The notes beneath the pieces were generated by a model. That model was not told the DNA's origin. It ran no database searches and saw only the letters and a program-made list of their open reading frames with translations. Below, one piece after another: positions 24,133 through 63,544 of a stretch of DNA of 64,000 bases. The position numbers were made by a program, and so were the translations under genes. Numbering within the stretch: position 1 is the first letter of the stretch; the number at the start of each line of letters is the position of its first letter. Origin of the DNA: Patescibacteria group bacterium (GTDB taxonomy: Bacteria; Patescibacteriota; Microgenomatia; UBA8517); contig DAITMO010000001.1 of assembly GCA_036835125.1 (NCBI GenBank), forward strand, positions 609,399 through 673,398. Reading direction: 5' to 3'.

Positions 24133-24204
24133 TTAGCTTCAATTTCTTCTTTTTTTATACCTTTTGGAGCTTGCTAAGTATATCCATTTGAGCTAGAATG
24201 ATTT

Positions 24205-24221
24205 GAGGCTAAGTTAGCCTC
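24205..24221 (+). promoter_or_regulatory. perfect 8-1-8 palindrome GAGGCTAA-g-TTAGCCTC, 30 nt upstream of the gyrA start, followed by a T6 run
   Basis: Read directly from sequence. It contains the recurring TGAGGCTAA motif. It could be an operator or a partial intrinsic terminator of the adhesin gene. Confidence 0.3.
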
Positions 24222-24250
24222 GATTGCTTTTTTAATCTTTATTAATTGAT

Positions 24251-26902
24251 ATGAATACAGATATTGGAAAAATTATACCTACAGATATTACTTCAGTTTT
24301 AAGTAAATCATACGTTGATTATGCAATGAGCGTTATTGTATCCCGTGCCCTTCCTGATGTTCGTGATGGTTTAAAACCTGTTCATAGACGCATTCTATAT
24401 GCAATGCATACAATGGGACTTCATTTCAGTACTTCTGGTACAACTAAATCTGCAAAGGTTGTTGGAGAAGTTTTAGGAAAATATCATCCACATGGAGATA
24501 CTGCTGTATATGATGCTATGGTGCGTCTAGCACAAGATTTTTCAATGAGGTACCGTCTTGTACATGGACAGGGTAACTTTGGATCTGTTGATGGAGATCC
24601 AGCAGCAGCAATGAGGTACACCGAGGTCAAGCTTGCAAAACCATCAGATGCAATACTTCTTGATATAGAAAAAGACACTGTAGACTTTGTCGATACATTT
24701 GATGCCACAATGAAAGAACCGGTTTACCTTCCCTCTCTCCTTCCAAACCTTCTTCTTATGGGAAGTGAAGGAATTGCCGTTGGTATGGCTACAAAAATTC
24801 CAACTCATAATCTTACTGAGGTTGTTGATGCAGTAATTGCGGCAATTGAAATGGGACGAGTTATAAATAGTCCACAAGAAGGGGAAGAAAAAAACACACA
24901 TGAAGACCACACAGATTTTATTATTAAAAAGATTAATTTAGTTGCTGCTGGAGAGGAGAAAGAATTAACTCAAGAAGAGGTTGATCCAAGACAAATCAGT
25001 TTTGAAACAGATGCTACAATCCAAGACTTTGTTAAACTTATTCCAGGTCCAGACTTTCCTACAGGTGGAGCAATTTATGACGCTGAAAGTCTCATCGAAG
25101 TTTATTCAACAGGCCGAGGAAGGATTGTGGTTAGAGGAATTGCTGAGATAACAGAAGGGGTAAAAGGAAAACCTCAAATTGTAATAACTGAACTTCCATA
25201 TCAGGTAAACAAGGCAGAGCTGGTAGCAAAGATTGCTGAGTTGGTACGTGACAAGAAGCTTGTTGGAATAGCTGACCTTAGAGATGAATCAGATAAAGAT
25301 GGTATGAGAGTTGTTATAGACTTAAAACGAGATGCCAAGCCAAAGAGCGTATTAAATAATCTTTTTAAGCATACAAAACTTCAAACAACTTTTCCTGCAA
25401 ATTTTGTTGCCTTAGTCGATGGAACTCCTCACACATTAAACCTAAAACAAATTTTGGTTGAATATATCAAACATAGACAAAAAGTGGTCACCAGACGCAC
25501 TATTTTTGAACTAACAGAGGCAAAGAAGCGTGCACACATTTTGGAGGGCTTGAAAATCGCTTTGGATAACCTTGACGCAGTAATTAAAACTATCAGAGAA
25601 AGCAAAACTCAAGAAGAGGCAAAGGTAAATCTTATTTCAAGATTTAAACTTTCTGAAATTCAGGCGGTAGCAATACTCGATATGCAGTTAAGACGTTTAG
25701 CCGCTCTTGAGCGCGAGAAAATTGAAAAAGAGTACGAAGAGATAATGAAACTTGTGGACGCTCTAACTGCAATCTTAAAAGATCCAAAGAAGGTTCTTGA
25801 TATCATCGTTAAGGAACTAAAAGAACTTAAAGAAAAGTATGGAGATGAAAGAAAGACTAAAATTTATAAACACGCAATAGGAGAGTTTTCGGAAGAGGAT
25901 CTTGTTGCCAAAGAAGAAACTTTAATTACTGTAACTAAAACAGGTTATGTTAAAAGGCTTTCTGCAAGTGCTTATAGAGCACAAAGAAGAGGTGGTAAAG
26001 GAGTTATTGGAATGACAACAAAAGAAGAGGATGAAATAGAACACCTGGTAGATGCAACAACCCATGACACAATTCTCTTCTTTACCAATAAAGGTCGTGT
26101 TTTTGGGATAAAAGCTTGGGAAATTCCAGAAAGTAGTCGCCAAGCAAAAGGACAGGCCTTGGTAAATCTTCTTAACCTTGAACAAGGAGAGGAAATTCGT
26201 TCAATTTTACCAATGAATAAAGACTTGGGAATTAAAAATCTCATAATGGCCACCCGTACAGGAGTTATCAAAAAAACAAATATTTCAGAATTTGAAAACT
26301 TAAGAGCATCTGGGCTTATTGCAATTAAACTTAGAACCGATGATCAACTTGTTTCTGTCCATCCTACAGGAGGGGATGACCATATAATTCTTTTAACACG
26401 CGATGCAAAATCCATTCGTTTTCCAGAAGCAAATGTAAGACCAATGGGAAGGGCCACAACTGGAGTAACAGGAATAAAGCTTGAGAAAGATGATGAAATT
26501 ATTGGAATGGAAGTTTTTCCAGCAAAAGAAAATATTCCTGCAGATAAAAGAAAGAAAGTGTTCCGAGACATCTTAACAATTGCAGAAAAAGGACTTGGAA
26601 AAAGAACTCCAATTCATCTTTTCCCAGTTCAAAAAAGATCTGGTAAAGGAGTAAAAGCAGCTGTGGTGACAGACAAAACTGGCCTTCTTAAAACTGCTGT
26701 AATGGTGACTCAAAACATGGATCAAGTTGTTATAACAAGCCGTATGGGACAGGTTATAAAGCTTCCATTAAAAAATATTCCACAATTAGGACGTGCAACC
26801 CAAGGAGTTATACTTATGCGCTTTGCAGATAAAAGTGACTCTGTTGCTGCAGCGGCTACCTTGGAAAAGGGTGGAAACGATGAAGAAGAAAGTATAGAAT
26901 AA
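24251..26902 (+). CDS. gyrA: DNA gyrase subunit A
   Basis: [53 protein letters not shown], and AAMRYTE with the active-site Tyr region. Confidence 0.95.
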
Positions 26903-27674: not shown

Positions 27675-28187
27675 TTATCCAAGGAGAAGTTTATTGAAAT
27701 CATTCTGATAGAAGTAGTCGTGTGTGTTTGCATCCTTTTCAATTATCTTAATTCTTGAACCAAACTCAGACAAAAATTCCACAATCGCACTATAACTTCC
27801 AACTGGATCCTCACTATTTTGAAATACCACGACATTGTTCAAATCAACTTTCCTTAAAGCATCTTTAATAATCTCTTTATTTATTTCATTTAATCCATTT
27901 AAAGGGATTCCACAAAAAATTACTTTTCTAATCTTTTCAGGAGATTTTTGAATGAGGTAGGAAGCAGCAAGAGTACCGATAGACTTTGCAACAATATCTA
28001 CAACTCTTTTTCCAGAAATACCGTCAAGAAGGTTTGCCTTTGTTTTTGCATCAAATTTAACGCTTGGGTCATCCCAGTGTCCCCAATAAATGGGACGGAT
28101 TTCACTGTCTCCCGGAATCTGACTCGCAGTTTTTTCCAACCATTCCTTATTACTAAAAGAATATCCTGGTAAAATCAATGTAACCAT
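27675..28187 (-). CDS. small alpha/beta-hydrolase-fold protein (YdeN/RBBP9-like)
   Basis: 170 aa; nucleophile-elbow-like AKSIG and a DxxxH-type C-terminus. Weak assignment. Confidence 0.35.
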   Translation of the reverse strand: MVTLILPGYSFSNKEWLEKTASQIPGDSEIRPIYWGHWDDPSVKFDAKTKANLLDGISGKRVVDIVAKSIGTLAASYLIQKSPEKIRKVIFCGIPLNGLNEINKEIIKDALRKVDLNNVVVFQNSEDPVGSYSAIVEFLSEFGSRIKIIEKDANTHDYFYQNDFNKLLLG

Positions 28188-28221
28188 TTAAGGAACATTA
28201 TAGCAGACCTTATTGACTTAA

Positions 28222-28249
28222 TATCTTACAAATGTAGAATTATATATAT
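28222..28249 (+). promoter_or_regulatory. sigma70-like promoter TTGACT-16-TAGAAT driving the metK leader
   Basis: Hexamers read from sequence; the predicted TSS falls at the start of the riboswitch P1 strand. Confidence 0.45.
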
Positions 28250-28337
28250 ATCAAGAGAGCGGTGAGGGAATTAGCCCGTTGATCCGCCGGCAACCTTATC
28301 ATTATAGGAAGAAGGTGCCAAAGCTATTAACGATATG
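28248..28337 (+). promoter_or_regulatory. SAM-I (S-box) riboswitch in the metK 5' leader, apparently translational
   Basis: AUCAAGAGAGCGGUGAGGGAAUUAGCCCGUUGAUCCGCCGGCAACC...AAGGUGCCAAAGC matches the conserved SAM-I cores (AUCAAGAGAGG.GGAGGGA, GCCCG...CCGGCAACC, GGUGCCAA). The 3' P1 strand GAUAUG includes the metK AUG. No terminator hairpin. The P4 region is very short. Confidence 0.7.
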
Positions 28338-29393
28338 GGAAATATATTTACCAATTACTTCAAGACTTATACCGTTGAATCTGTAACAGAGGGTCATCCT
28401 GACAAAATATGTGACCAGGTTTCGGATGCCATATTAGACGAATGTCTCCTTCAGGATCCCCAAAGCAGGGTGGCTATTGAGTCTTTTGGAAGTCATGGGC
28501 TTTTTGTAATCGGGGGAGAACTAACAACACACGCAAAATTTGACACCAAACAAATTGCTGCTGGGGTTTATAAAAATATTGGTTATAAGGATAAATTAAG
28601 AATAATTACAAATATTATTAAACAATCTCCAGACATTGCTATGGGAGTAGACACTGGAGGTGCGGGTGATCAAGGAATAATGTACGGGTTTGCTACGAAC
28701 GAAACTCCAGAATATTTACCTAAAGGGGTCGCACTTGTTCATAAATTAACCCGCGGTCTTGCGAGTCTTAGACGTAACAAAAGTATTTCTTGGCTTCTAC
28801 CTGATGGAAAGGCACAAGTAACCATGCAAGGCAAAAATATTAAAACAATTTTGGTTTCAACTCAGCACAAAAAAAATATTTCCCAAAATGAAATTACCAG
28901 AGAAATTACCAACAAATTGATAAAAAGGCTAGTTGGGAACATATCTGAAATTGAAATTCTAATTAACCCCACTGGACGTTTTGAAACGGGAGGTTTTTTT
29001 GGAGATACAGGTCTAACAGGTAGAAAAATTATGGTTGATACATATGGAGGTCTTATTCCTCATGGTGGAGGATGTTTTTCGGGTAAAGACCCTACAAAAG
29101 TAGACAGAAGTGGGGCCTATATGTGTCGATTTGCCGCTAAAAACTTGGTAGCAAGGGGGTATGGAAAAAGTATTTTAGTGTCCGTTGCTTATGCAATTGG
29201 CAAAGCCGAACCATTAATGCTCACAGCAATTAATGAAAAGGGTCAAAATTTAAATTCAATTCTCAAAAAAGATTTTGATTTCAGGCCAAAGGCAATCATT
29301 GAAGAGCTCGACCTTTTAAAACCTATTTTCCAAAAATCAGCTTCATACGGTCATTTTGGAAATCCTGCTTTTCCCTGGGAAAAAATAGTTTAA
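28335..29393 (+). CDS. metK: S-adenosylmethionine synthetase
   Basis: ESVTEGHPDKICDQVSDAILD, GGAGDQGIMYGFATNETPEYLP, GGGCFSGKDPTKVDRSGAYMCR. Confidence 0.9.
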   Translation: MGNIFTNYFKTYTVESVTEGHPDKICDQVSDAILDECLLQDPQSRVAIESFGSHGLFVIGGELTTHAKFDTKQIAAGVYKNIGYKDKLRIITNIIKQSPDIAMGVDTGGAGDQGIMYGFATNETPEYLPKGVALVHKLTRGLASLRRNKSISWLLPDGKAQVTMQGKNIKTILVSTQHKKNISQNEITREITNKLIKRLVGNISEIEILINPTGRFETGGFFGDTGLTGRKIMVDTYGGLIPHGGGCFSGKDPTKVDRSGAYMCRFAAKNLVARGYGKSILVSVAYAIGKAEPLMLTAINEKGQNLNSILKKDFDFRPKAIIEELDLLKPIFQKSASYGHFGNPAFPWEKIV

Positions 29394-29396
29394 ACA

Positions 29397-30353
29397 CTAA
29401 GTTTTTCCTCCTTTTCCATGAAATGCTGAGTGGATATCGCGAAGTTGTTTATTTGTTACATGTGTATAAATTTGTGTTGTAGAAATATTTTTATGTCCAA
29501 GCATTTCCTGAACACTTCTAATGTCAGCCCCTGCCATAAGTAAGTCTGTTGCAAAACTATGGCGCATTACGTGGGGAGTCACTTCGACCGGTAGTTTCAT
29601 TTTATGGGAATACTTTTTTACCATTCTTTGAACAGATCTGACAGTTAGCCTCATTTTTTCATCAGGAGTGCCTGGAGCTGAGATTCCTTTATGGTGTATA
29701 AAAAGAGGTTTGTAATTATCGTCTCTCTCATTTAGGTACTTAATTAACCAGTCTGTGGCTCTCTGAGACATAAAGACAACGCGGGCCTTTCCACCTTTTC
29801 CAATGATTCCAAACTCACGCCTATCTAAATCCACTTTGTCACAATCAAGCTTCACAAGTTCGCTTACACGAAGTCCTGTTGAAAAAAGCATCTCAAGGAT
29901 TGCCTTGTCCCGTTTTCCTTGAATTGTTGAAAGACTGGGTGCATTTAAAAGCCTGTCTACTTGTTCGCCACTTAAGAATTTAACCTGTCTCTCTTCAACT
30001 TTCGGAATTTCAATTTTGTCAGGTGCCATAACTTGGTAATCGTTTCTGGTTAACCATTTTAAGAAACTCCTTAGGGCAATTACATGATATCCCTGAGTTC
30101 TTCTGGTCATCTGAGGCTTATTTTCACCAGGAAGATTGGAAAGATACACCCTAAAGCTTCTTACAACATCAGGATTAATATCTTTCAGTTCCTGCCTTAT
30201 ACCTTCATTACTCATCCAATTGGTAAAACGCGTTAAGTAGTGTTTGTAGTCCCGTATCGTTAGGGGAGAGGAGCCTTTCTCTATTTGGAGATATTCCAAA
30301 AACTGATCAACCTTCTTTGCTATTTCAGAAGTGTTCTTTGCAGACTCTGGCAT
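29397..30353 (-). CDS. tyrosine site-specific recombinase, XerC/XerD family
   Basis: C-terminal catalytic region HVMRHSFATDLLMAGADIRSVQEMLGHKNISTTQIYTHV (R..H..R/H..Y) and an N-terminal SAM-like domain. Confidence 0.8.
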   Translation of the reverse strand: MPESAKNTSEIAKKVDQFLEYLQIEKGSSPLTIRDYKHYLTRFTNWMSNEGIRQELKDINPDVVRSFRVYLSNLPGENKPQMTRRTQGYHVIALRSFLKWLTRNDYQVMAPDKIEIPKVEERQVKFLSGEQVDRLLNAPSLSTIQGKRDKAILEMLFSTGLRVSELVKLDCDKVDLDRREFGIIGKGGKARVVFMSQRATDWLIKYLNERDDNYKPLFIHHKGISAPGTPDEKMRLTVRSVQRMVKKYSHKMKLPVEVTPHVMRHSFATDLLMAGADIRSVQEMLGHKNISTTQIYTHVTNKQLRDIHSAFHGKGGKT

Positions 30354-30398
30354 TAATTTATATTAAACCAATAAAAATGGGGTGTCAATAATGTGCGA

Positions 30399-31157
30399 CT
30401 AAGGGTGTAGTGTACCTTTGATAGCCCTATCAAATAAATCCATTAAAGGATACATTCCTTGCTCCATACTTGGATAACGATCAATAACAATAAGCTGATC
30501 ATGACAAAAGTCAGGTTGCATTTTTCCAAATGGAACATTGACAACAAGTAGGTTTTTTATACCAGAATTCAAAGCTGTCCTTGTAAAAGTAATTGAATCA
30601 TCAACAAATACTACCCAAGGTGCCATTTTTGAAAGTCTTTCTAATTCACCAGCTTTGTAAATAGCTGTGTCTTCGTGACTAATTATTCCACCATCTTTTC
30701 TCATCAAAATATTTTCAAACAGAATAAGAGGAAGTTCACGCTTGAAGCTTTCTTCTGTAGCTTTTCGTAAATCCGGATTTCTAGCCGTTAAAACATAATT
30801 ATTTTTCTGCCCATAAAGAGAAATGGTTTTATTGACAAGTGGCTTTATATAAAGATATCTATGGGCACGTTTAATTAAATCTGCGCTGTACCATCCGTCT
30901 TCTGCATGTTCTATATCGTCATTGCTTAGATTGTTTTCTTTTGCAACTTTAGTTAAATAATTCCAACTATCATAATCATCTAAGTTTACTTTGATTCCGT
31001 GTTTAATATAAAAATCGTCAGAAACATCTTTTGCTAAATTTATCAAAGTTAAATCAGCATCATAAACAATAATTGTATTAGGGTTTCCAACAATTTCTTT
31101 AAATAGTTGTAAATTACCATTAAACAAATTTTCTAAATGATATGGCTTTCTTTCCAT
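30399..31157 (-). CDS. HAD-superfamily hydrolase (possible 5'-nucleotidase-like)
   Basis: Motif I IIVYDADLTL (DxDxT) and VVFVDDS (motif IV-like). Confidence 0.45.
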   Translation of the reverse strand: MERKPYHLENLFNGNLQLFKEIVGNPNTIIVYDADLTLINLAKDVSDDFYIKHGIKVNLDDYDSWNYLTKVAKENNLSNDDIEHAEDGWYSADLIKRAHRYLYIKPLVNKTISLYGQKNNYVLTARNPDLRKATEESFKRELPLILFENILMRKDGGIISHEDTAIYKAGELERLSKMAPWVVFVDDSITFTRTALNSGIKNLLVVNVPFGKMQPDFCHDQLIVIDRYPSMEQGMYPLMDLFDRAIKGTLHP

Positions 31158-31203
31158 AGAAGCCTTTTTAACACACTTTCTAGTCTTTTTCCATGCCTAA
31201 TTT

Positions 31204-31212
31204 GAGGCTAAA
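31204..31212 (+). repeat. TGAGGCTAA motif copy (in ATTTGAGGCTAAAACCTC)
   Basis: Same 12-mer ATTTGAGGCTAA as at 24201. Same 14-mer TGAGGCTAAAACCT as at 63536. Confidence 0.4.
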
Positions 31213-31740
31213 ACCTCACCAAATCGATTTTAACGCGTTATTGGCAAAAAGATGAATAATGCATCATCTAATCTTCCCATGTTTACGGGAAAAACAATAC
31301 AAATTATCAAAATTCTGTATTTCTATAAACATTTGCCAAAAAACAGGGGAGGGGGACAAAACGCCAAAAATTCATTCGGCTAAGTTTCGGAGGGATAGGT
31401 TTTAGAGAAAACAAAAAATAGAGGATTTTAAATAAAAAAAATAAATAATTTATGAACATCTATTAACAGAAACATTTTGAAAGGTAAAAATACTACACTA
31501 CCCTCGACAGCTTTAGATTACGTCGCAAAAGTTATATTGTGCGACTATATACAATTTACCTCCCTAAGGGTATATATATCATTATTTCTCACATAACCCT
31601 TCTAAGAGGACTGTATGAAGCCTTTATAAATAACACTAAAAATACATCTACTGTTCTCTAATAGGAAGATATAAAACAATAACCTTATTAATTACTTATC
31701 CACAATAATAAACACATTACCAATGGGAAATACACTACTC

Positions 31741-31749
31741 TGAGGCTAA
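31741..31749 (+). repeat. TGAGGCTAA motif copy
   Basis: Exact 9-mer inside the ORF-free region. Confidence 0.35.
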
Positions 31750-31969
31750 TAACTATATCAAACTATACAAATTACCCATGAATCTACACTTCGGTTTTTT
31801 TTCGAATGATTGTCAACGTCGTATTTCGTGAAAATACCTATAATATTTCGTGAAAACATAATGTCCTATAACTATAAACATATGAAATTATAGGATATGT
31901 CACTCCTCTCCTCCCCTCTTTGTGTGTCTCTATTTTTTTAGATGAAGATTATGTTTATTTTATATTTAT

Positions 31970-40280: not shown

Positions 40281-40326
40281 TTTAATTATTCAGCATTTAG
40301 CCTTGATTCATGGTAGAATATCGTAT

Positions 40327-40411
40327 GGCCGAGTGGCGGAATGGTAGACGCGCACGACTCAAAATCGTGTTGGGGTAATACTCAGTGAGAGTTCGAGTCT
40401 CTCCTTGGCCA
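40327..40411 (+). tRNA. tRNA-Leu(CAA), type II with long variable arm
   Basis: Acceptor GGCCGAG/CTTGGCC (one G-T pair). Anticodon stem CACGA/TCGTG with loop CTCAAAA (anticodon CAA). Long variable arm. T-arm GAGAG-TTCGAGT-CTCTC. Discriminator A; CCA not encoded. Confidence 0.8.
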
Positions 40412-49283: not shown

Positions 49284-49292
49284 TGAGGCTAA
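49284..49292 (+). repeat. TGAGGCTAA motif copy inside hairpin GGAGC-TGAGGCTAA-GCTCC (ychF stop / rpsF upstream)
   Basis: Exact 9-mer flanked by a 5-bp inverted repeat. Confidence 0.35.
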
Positions 49293-63535: not shown

Positions 63536-63544
63536 TGAGGCTAA
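63536..63544 (+). repeat. TGAGGCTAA motif copy in the 17-nt folD-glyA intergenic spacer
   Basis: Exact 9-mer; 14-mer identity with the 31204 copy. Confidence 0.35.

Follow-up and report, generated by a model that had tools for sequence, protein, structure and literature searches.

The nonamer TGAGGCTAA, which reads TTAGCCTCA on the opposite strand, is a real, conserved and promoter-associated cis-element of a fairly ordinary general kind, distinguished by its enrichment, its intergenic placement, its proximity to predicted promoters and its conservation at orthologous sites. Judging from the sequence, we tentatively read TTAGCCTCA as an operator or half-operator for a putative lineage-specific DNA-binding regulator, a function that we prefer while regarding it as quite possible rather than probable.

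Source of the DNA and Sampling of Relatives

The window, i.e., the whole stretch of 64 kb that was analyzed, lies on a metagenome contig of 285 kb (ENA ERZ724080 NODE_43; also MAG GCA_964443015.1) and originated from a CPR/Patescibacteria bacterium with a G+C content of about 35%, and its nearest GyrA and YchF relatives were labelled Woesebacteria or Microgenomates. Other assemblies of the same organism were 99.96–100% identical, and no structural variation was found among the assemblies from the ERZ724080-83 and SRR3330210/11 samples. Related sequences were collected as 80 metagenome loci found by a scan with the neighbouring DUF5656 protein and were then dereplicated; the folD and rpsF sites of relatives were reached through FolD and YchF homologue look-ups.

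Enrichment and Placement of the Word

Six exact copies of TGAGGCTAA were found on the two strands of the window, five of them in intergenic DNA on the plus strand (starts 24204, 31203, 31741, 49284 and 63536, each an exact match) and one in coding DNA on the minus strand. Those flanked by minus-strand genes are given below as TTAGCCTCA.

24204..24212, plus strand: TGAGGCTAA, left arm of the gyrA inverted repeat, exact match starting 4 nt past the -10 box TAGAAT
29645..29653, minus strand: sixth exact copy, inside the xerC/D-like ORF 29397-30353 (frame M-R-L-T)
31203..31211, minus strand: TTAGCCTCA, "class II" copy, directly past the invariant TTAAAATCGATTTGGTGAGG
31741..31749, minus strand: TTAGCCTCA, "class I" copy, 2 nt past the invariant extended -10 TGATATAGT
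49284..49292, minus strand: TTAGCCTCA at rpsF, overlapping the ychF stop (T-TAG), 8 nt upstream of the -35
63536..63544, minus strand: TTAGCCTCA at folD, 3 nt past the glyA stop and 8 nt ahead of TATAAT

The preliminary description had reported the five intergenic copies, and this recurrence was confirmed, with the copy at 29645 as an addition; the positions 24204, 31741, 49284 and 63536 were correct, whereas 31204 should read 31203. The 12-mer ATTTGAGGCTAA and the 14-mer TGAGGCTAAAACCT, each described as common to two copies, are real, as are the gyrA palindrome and the GGAGC..GCTCC hairpin. Identity between the window copies ended after 9–14 nt, terminal repeats and target duplications were not found around them, and the usable core of the word is TAGCYTCR. 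The copy at 29645 is judged to be a chance coding occurrence, since it lies in frame within the xerC/D-like ORF.

According to the shuffled windows, 0.62 copies were expected against the six observed, and none of the 100 shuffles reached six; TGAGGCTAA was the top over-represented 9-mer of the window (Poisson p = 5e-7, order-2 Markov model). An equally extreme best 9-mer occurred in 3.3% of the simulated sequences, so that the count alone is borderline after multiple testing. The enrichment is made solid by placement: intergenic DNA, defined by the gene calls of the source contig (ENA ERZ724080 NODE_43), constitutes 6.9% of the window and holds five of the six copies (binomial p = 8.7e-6), which bears out the intergenic clustering noted earlier. 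It should be noted that the copy at 49284 runs into the end of ychF by 4 nt, stop codon included. No further copies were found in the flanking 9 kb on either side of the window (~81 kb of genome covered).

In the dereplicated relatives (693 kb), 25 exact copies were observed versus 3.5 expected, and in the relatives taken together with the window and loci L001-L004, 28 of 35 copies lay in the 14% of the sequence called intergenic. The word was kept, with changing flanks, at the orthologous gyrA, folD and rpsF sites and at both sites of the noncoding element described below, and this orthologous conservation places all five sites under constraint. Thus, the look into related genomes that had been suggested at the outset revealed a word that is enriched, found at orthologous sites and not confined to the window. 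A DNA uptake sequence was rejected, as the density of the word is too low (the window has about one copy in 13 kb, the relatives one in 28 kb) and the copies are almost all intergenic; DNA uptake sequences occur at about one copy per kb, are abundant inside genes and often form terminator pairs.

Promoter Context and Orientation

Of the 48 genes with their own upstream region, 22 had a -10-like hexamer whose end lay 6 or 7 nt ahead of the start codon, and one had an SD-like sequence. With -10 boxes peaking 6–7 nt before the starts, most genes look leaderless and the intergenic DNA is largely promoter, so that positions relative to the start codon are effectively positions relative to the promoter. 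This promoter architecture, which appears to be leaderless and SD-poor, is a by-product of the analysis. Consensus -35/-10 predictions (for background on bacterial core promoters, see PMC12641261) placed all five intergenic copies within about -55 to +25 of a predicted promoter. At rpsF and the HAD-like gene, the word precedes the -35; at folD and in the tRNA-Leu variant, it falls within the spacer; and at gyrA and the noncoding element, it coincides with the predicted start site. Related words were also found directly past TAAAAT, namely, AGCTTC at ychF and yebC and AGCCAC at rpsB. A Shine-Dalgarno or anti-SD role of the word was rejected because of the rarity of SD-like sequences and a distance to the start codon that varies from 4 to 45 nt; a -35 or -10 element of a fixed promoter class was rejected because the distances to the -10 are inconsistent.

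Four of the intergenic copies are flanked by minus-strand genes and read TTAGCCTCA on the sense strand of those genes, and the sole copy among plus-strand genes is the gyrA palindrome, which also carries TTAGCCTC on the plus strand (24214-24221); every copy is therefore TTAGCCTCA in the sense of the downstream gene. Consequently, the statement that the word lies on the plus strand whatever the gene direction is literally true but misleading, as its orientation tracks the downstream gene. In the relatives, the word at the class II position was inverted relative to the neighbouring block in L105, L114, L127, L140, L159 and L166, and in two inverted relatives it lay 3 nt ahead of a perfect extended -10, as TGAGGCTAA-N3-TGTATAAT. 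The occurrence of both orientations relative to the promoter fits a DNA site better than an RNA signal. Replication-linked strand bias (Chi, KOPS-like) was rejected, as the orientation follows the genes, the copies concerned are intergenic only and their density is low.

The gyrA Leader

The gyrA site differs from the others in that the word is present there in two arms, within the following features.

24133..24141, plus strand: variant TTAGCTTCA, directly past the stop of the 1223-aa gene
24171..24199, plus strand: predicted gyrA promoter TTGCTA-17-TAGAAT (consensus prediction)
24203..24233, plus strand: terminator-like hairpin and T-rich tail at the predicted 5' end of the gyrA leader
24214..24221, plus strand: TTAGCCTC(g), right arm, sense-strand word, 29 nt ahead of the gyrA ATG

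The palindrome of the window is TGAGGCTAA-g-TTAGCCTCg, and the hairpin that it forms was the only terminator-like call in the region (0.0 expected in shuffles), with a predicted RNA fold of -11.7 kcal/mol (z = -2.8); the gyrA hairpin of L101 reached -13.9 kcal/mol (z = -4.4), its stem extending to 15 pairs with a U-tract. Only the gyrA copy folded better than shuffles, the other three of the four copies folded having a z of about -1. In nine relatives, the gyrA promoter was TTGCTt-17-TA(A/G)AAT, followed 4–5 nt downstream of the -10 by TGAGGCT, a variable loop of 4–5 nt and TAGCCTC(A/G), then by a T-rich stretch, with the gyrA ATG 4–30 nt later. The loop and tail varied among relatives and the right arm was kept; it persisted where the left arm was decayed (L139, L160 and L162) or absent (L003). 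In L003, the word lay 7 nt ahead of the -10, with a TTGCTG hexamer 17 nt upstream of that -10.

The gyrA dyad can be described as a 19-bp palindrome, TGAGGCTR-N3-YAGCCTCR, with half-site centres about 11 bp apart and a gap of 3 nt between the 8-bp cores, reduced to 2 nt in L160 and L162, the copies at other sites being single. Substitutions in its arms (A to G) kept the RNA pairing and were G-U compatible on the sense strand. The C-to-T variant of the word found at 24133 recurred at orthologous sites in relatives. The gene upstream of gyrA was co-directional in the window and in L101, L114, L160 and L162; a divergent ORF was called at this place in L121 and L124, and the hairpin was kept. This divergent ORF had no Pfam match and is a putative gene; should it be real, termination of an upstream gene is excluded as the role of the conserved hairpin in these two relatives.

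The rpsF, folD, HAD-Like and tRNA-Leu Sites

The predicted rpsF promoter, TTGCCA-17-TATAAT, has 11 of 12 consensus matches, and its copy of the word was intact where the YchF of the relative was 96% or 90% identical and had been lost where the identity was 81%. At folD, relatives with 73–74% FolD identity carried TAG-gtt-TTAGC(C/T)TCA-N8-TATAAT-N6-8-ATG, in which the 8-nt distance to TATAAT was fixed and the spacer sequence differed. The folD site of L182 had undergone a two-sided change, from AGCC/GGCT to AGCT/AGCT, that kept the AGCY-UCA-RGCU pairing. The folD-glyA spacer had earlier been given as 17 nt, a figure that depends on a TTG start; with the ATG located 6 nt past TATAAT, the spacer is 32 nt.

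The class II word ends 45 nt ahead of the ATG of the HAD-like gene (30399-31157) and lies 9 nt upstream of a weaker predicted -35. The distance of exactly 45 nt to the ATG is the same at rpsF; among relatives, however, the class II word was separated from the downstream start codon by 28 to 62 nt, and the common position at about -50 may therefore be a coincidence. A further candidate site was found at a tRNA gene.

40297..40305, plus strand: two-mismatch variant TTAGCCTTG at tRNA-Leu(CAA), 8 nt ahead of TAGAAT

The TAGAAT box ends 7 nt before tRNA-Leu(CAA), a geometry identical to that of the folD site, and a good -35 hexamer is absent from both promoters; the membership of TTAGCCTTG is tentative because of its two mismatches. 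In the local folds, the word forms the 3' arm of the gyrA hairpin, lies in the loop at rpsF and makes up the 5' arm at folD, and this difference in hairpin register from site to site argues against a common RNA structure. No terminator-like calls were obtained at 49284, at 63536 or at either copy beside the noncoding element. An upstream stop codon is touched by the copies at ychF and glyA, by the word past the gene upstream of gyrA in L003 and by the variant at 24133.

The Noncoding Element between the DUF5656 and HAD-Like Genes

The class I and class II copies flank a conserved noncoding element, which lies in a 0.8-kb gap between the DUF5656 gene and the HAD-like gene; it starts beside the class I copy and ends about 35 nt before the class II copy.

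31245..31760, minus strand: conserved noncoding element of about 0.5 kb, candidate structured RNA, recognized by block order and spacing
31844-31856 and 31822-31834: two TTTTCACGAAATA repeats, 22 bp apart
31752-31760: extended -10 TGATATAGT
31696-31704: invariant TGTGGATAA, identical to the DnaA-box consensus
31522-31545: hairpin GTCGCA..TGCGAC (CCGAGT..ACTCGG instead in three relatives)
31245-31268: hairpin, then T-tract
31214-31233: invariant block

The order and spacing of the blocks were conserved in about 70 relatives, and the class I position, aligned in 25 relatives, read YYAGCYTCA or YCAGGCAYGAA. Two hairpins of the element covaried, with 92% of cells paired and 6 of 10 pairs changing on both sides, and none of 500 shuffles reached this covariation score. 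The element is a candidate structured RNA of about 0.5 kb; no Rfam match was found for it in the window, L003 or L166 at gathering or permissive thresholds. Pairing of the 5' word with the 3' UGAGG block in a closing helix was rejected as weak, given mismatches in several relatives and only one double compensation, and an alternative pairing of RYYAG with UUGGU revealed one-sided changes only. An oriC at this locus was also rejected, as there is a single invariant DnaA box and no cluster, and nearby gene orientation and GC skew converge rather than diverge.

Functional Readings of the Word

The operator reading is preferred since it covers all the placements and both orientations and since the sequence is kept rather than the pairing. 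The preliminary description had proposed the half-site of an operator, which is consistent with the promoter placement, the orthologous sites, the two orientations and the 19-bp gyrA repeat; the argument from orientation that accompanied it did not hold. A putative regulator conserved in this branch of Woesebacteria would have as its target set gyrA, rpsF-ssb-rpsR, folD, the HAD-type nucleotidase-like gene beside xer, the noncoding element and possibly tRNA-Leu, with ychF and yebC as possible further targets. We infer that a protein binds, and likewise the sign of regulation at each site. A dimer on the 19-bp gyrA palindrome, which covers the predicted start, would act as a repressor; folD and the tRNA-Leu variant have one copy each, filling the spacer at its upstream end, 8 nt ahead of the -10; and at rpsF and the HAD-like gene, a protein bound to a single copy at about -50 could activate. 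A dimeric regulator would not usually be expected to use single 9-bp sites that have no partner half-site, and most copies are of this kind. The operator is a tentative reading for this reason and because the regulator is putative and the promoters are all predicted. No DNA-binding domain was found in the neighbouring hypothetical proteins, and the adjacent 252-aa gene was rejected as the regulator because it is HAD-like.

The main rival of the operator is a role at the RNA level, which we consider somewhat unlikely, with the word serving as the 3' arm of a leader hairpin, as a processing or termination signal after stop codons, or as a target for pairing with a UGAGG RNA. A hairpin arm, as at gyrA and the HAD-like gene, would stabilise mRNA or attenuate transcription, and the invariant block UUUGGUGAGGU beside the noncoding element is a possible pairing partner. 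All five window copies lie in the sense of the flanking genes, the gyrA hairpin is stable, with its 5' end at the predicted start and a T-rich tract behind it, the word follows UGAGG at the class II site, and several copies touch upstream stops, as listed above. The G-U compatible variation of the gyrA arms and the two-sided change at the folD site of L182 are substitutions that preserve pairing, and at those two sites they favour constraint on the RNA. However, at rpsF, folD and the HAD-like gene, the predicted promoter is downstream of the word, which would be transcribed there only via read-through; six relatives carry the word inverted at class II; the hairpin register differs everywhere and 3/4 copies fold no better than shuffles; the right arm at gyrA persists in L003 and L139 without its pairing partner; and the pairing of the 5' word with the UGAGG block is mismatched in several relatives, with one clear double compensation. 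In a further, unlikely reading, the word would be the mark of a small regulon of replication, nucleotide and translation genes that is conserved throughout this branch of Woesebacteria and wired to an undescribed structured RNA of ~0.5 kb between DUF5656 and xer. Such an RNA would start at one copy of the word, and the invariant block AAAAUCGAUUUGGUGAGG just past its terminator-like hairpin, with a UGAGG complementary to the word, perhaps together with the RNA, might control the same genes by pairing or by titration of a factor. It is rather improbable that the palindrome at gyrA does no more than terminate transcription of the 1223-aa gene ahead of it, as a plain intrinsic terminator, and that the other copies are unrelated short matches, kept only through the constraint on intergenic DNA in compact genomes. 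The gyrA hairpin is the sole terminator-like call there, the upstream gene is co-directional in the window and four relatives, and the stem of L101 extends to 15 pairs with a U-tract; against this, L121 and L124, in which the ORF called upstream runs divergently, retain the hairpin, transcription from the promoter immediately preceding the hairpin would run into it, and the exact 9-mer at four other conserved sites and its excess in the relatives (25 vs 3.5) are left unexplained.

A core-promoter feature read by RNA polymerase itself, which could be an upstream promoter element or a sequence favoured as discriminator or around the start, is likewise unlikely. It would account for the shared TGnTAAAAT-AGCTTC-ATG of ychF and yebC and the TAAAAT-AGCCACA of rpsB, for TAAAATAGCTTCA at ychF being kept in L177 and L178 despite a changed distance to the ATG, for TATAAT-TAGCTTCG at yebC in L155, L156, L160 and L162, and for the class I copy 2 nt past an extended -10; but there are three or more locations with respect to the -10 at which the exact word is found (about -50, the spacer and +1 to +20), and no single polymerase contact explains them all, most promoters of the window are without it, and most yebC promoters in relatives have unrelated discriminators. 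It is very improbable that DnaA, or a protein resembling it, acts as a transcription factor on replication-related genes by binding the word as a divergent 9-mer of the DnaA-box type. An asymmetric 9-bp word matching TTATCCACA at 7 of 9 positions, targets related to replication and nucleotides (gyrA, ssb, folD and the nucleotidase-like gene) and the perfect consensus TGTGGATAA, invariant in 25 of 25 aligned relatives ~45 nt from the class I copy, are consistent with it. However, positions 4 and 7, where the word departs from the consensus, are critical in characterised DnaA boxes, the invariance of the canonical box points to a DnaA that reads the canonical sequence in this lineage, and canonical boxes with one mismatch are neither in excess nor clustered in the window (22 vs 21.7 expected). 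It is hardly credible that the word is a miniature repeat of a mobile kind or the core site at which the adjacent Xer-like tyrosine recombinase acts: a xerC/D-like gene does lie 0.85 kb off, and direct 9-bp copies 538 bp apart do flank the noncoding element in the window, but in L106 the word is present only at class II and in other relatives only at class I, six relatives have it inverted, the copies are unlike beyond 9–14 nt at positions that are orthologous and fixed, and the assemblies compared above are free of structural variation. The miniature-repeat alternative of the preliminary description thus fails, since there is nothing common beyond 9–14 nt, no terminal repeats or target duplications surround the word, and the orthologous positions are fixed; REP/MITE repeats have an extended unit of 20–200 nt with terminal repeats and are scattered at non-orthologous sites. 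An Xer att/dif core was rejected on the same lines, as conservation of the class I word does not go together with that of the class II word, inverted words occur, and assemblies do not vary; att/dif sequences consist of a conserved pair of sites flanking an element or of a single ~28-bp site with two arms.

Comparison with Known Systems

As a putative operator, the word resembles the LexA, Fur and DnaA-box regulons in being a short sequence in the promoters of a small, functionally related gene set, used in either orientation, palindromic at one target and kept across genera. It differs from them in that its reader is putative, its copies are mostly single 9-bp sites that match no described box, and its targets mix replication, nucleotide and translation genes. 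Identity with the DnaA box TTATNCACA was rejected, as the word matches it at 7 of 9 positions and canonical boxes do not cluster.

CIRCE, the operator of HrcA (TTAGCACTC-N9-GAGTGCTAA), is located upstream of chaperone genes. The half-site of the word likewise begins with TTAGC and ends with CTC, the CIRCE arm minus one A equals TTAGCCTC, and both sequences occur as inverted repeats near start sites. However, the gyrA arms are everted (TGAGGCTAA-N1-TTAGCCTC) with a gap of 1–3 nt instead of N9, the targets are gyrA and others rather than chaperone genes, and single copies predominate; on the basis of arm order, gap and targets, identity with the CIRCE/HrcA operator was rejected.

The position of the word 7–8 nt upstream of the -10 at folD, the tRNA-Leu variant and gyrA of L003 is similar to that of operators of the Pho-box type, which replace the -35 ~10 nt upstream of the -10, whereas a single 9-bp copy is present here instead of two direct repeats and the other copies are placed quite differently. 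With intrinsic terminators and ompA-type 5' stabilisers, the gyrA hairpin shares a stem of 8–9 pairs, a following T-rich stretch and a location at the 5' end of the predicted leader; in contrast to these structures, it forms in only one of the five copies, its arm sequence is conserved and not just the pairing, and it persists where the upstream ORF as called is divergent. A survey of the literature on the word, DUF5656, regulation in this lineage and leaderless or structured RNAs in CPR yielded nothing specific.

Significance

To our knowledge, almost nothing is known about gene regulation in the uncultured CPR/Patescibacteria. If the word reflects only a local sequence preference, the finding is that of an ordinary regulatory motif. 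The by-products of the analysis, i.e., the apparently structured 0.5-kb element absent from Rfam and the apparently leaderless architecture, may matter more than the word itself. A conserved promoter word linking gyrA, ssb, folate and nucleotide genes would provide a first handle on a regulon in CPR.

Conserved Noncoding Element and Adjacent Repeats

The features identified in and around the noncoding element, which lies between the DUF5656 gene and the HAD-like gene, were as follows:

31245–31760, minus strand: conserved noncoding element of ~0.5 kb, 3′ of the DUF5656 gene
31214–31233, minus strand: nearly invariant 20-nt block, sense TTAAAATCGATTTGGTGAGG, adjoining the class II copy, i.e., the copy of the promoter-associated nine-base motif preceding the HAD-like gene
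31822–31834 and 31844–31856, minus strand: direct repeats, sense TTTTCACGAAATA, 22 bp apart, upstream of the promoter of the element
31522–31545 and 30385–30394: second recurrent word, GTCGCACAAT, also found 5′ of the xerC/D-like gene (xer) in the related loci L001, L003, and L004
31696–31704, plus strand: perfect DnaA-box consensus, TTATCCACA

The order and spacing of blocks within the noncoding element were identical across ~70 related loci, and compensatory changes were revealed in two of its hairpins, one of which was followed by a T-tract. The element had no match in Rfam at any threshold and is considered a candidate for a new structured RNA. The word GTCGCACAAT was located in a hairpin of this element, and in several genomes it also lay immediately 5′ of the −35 box in the xer promoter.

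The two TTTTCACGAAATA repeats, which resemble iterons or a site for a regulator, were accompanied 5′ of the element's promoter by forward and inverted copies of CCTATAAT. Among 8-mers, TTTTCACG ranked first for intergenic enrichment in the related loci. The 20-nt block contained the perfect palindrome AAATCGATTT as well as UGAGG, which is complementary to the nine-base motif. The DnaA-box consensus was unchanged in all 25 aligned relatives, with variable flanks; no clustering of DnaA boxes was detected within the window.

Proteins Encoded in the Window

The gene following the class II copy encoded an unannotated protein:

30399–31157, minus strand: 252-aa HAD-like protein

This protein carried the invariant DxD, T, K, DD pattern of HAD phosphatases, and the Pfam family NT5C (deoxyribonucleotidase) was assigned to one of its homologues. 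Matches of GyrA (24251–26902) to family models were split into two stretches, and the gap at approximately residues 200–252 suggests an insertion. An intein was found in DnaB of the related locus L177 (18651–21104), whereas DnaB of the window had none; the 870-aa DnaB ORF of locus L144 (592–3204) matched the latter in two separated stretches and probably also contains an intein.

Orientation Switch and Putative Transcription Starts

At 28245–28339, 5′ of metK, a match to the SAM-I riboswitch family of Rfam (RF00162, 57 bits) identified a riboswitch of this type. The metK and xer-like genes are convergent and 3 nt apart, and at this point (~28000–29400) both GC skew and gene orientation switch from plus to minus, a pattern expected near a replication terminus. 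The switch, at which a Xer recombinase gene lies, is only a hint of a terminus, because GC skew tracks the gene strand elsewhere in the window too.

A box was also found before a tRNA gene:

40314–40327: TAGAAT box region of tRNA-Leu(CAA)

The end of this box is 7 nt from the mature 5′ end (9–13 nt in two relatives), and thus the first nucleotide of the primary transcript may coincide with the mature end or adjoin it. Of the 48 genes across the whole window whose upstream regions were analyzed, 22 had a −10-like box ending 6–7 nt 5′ of the start codon and one had an SD-like sequence; the mRNAs of this Woesebacteria genome appear to be mostly leaderless.
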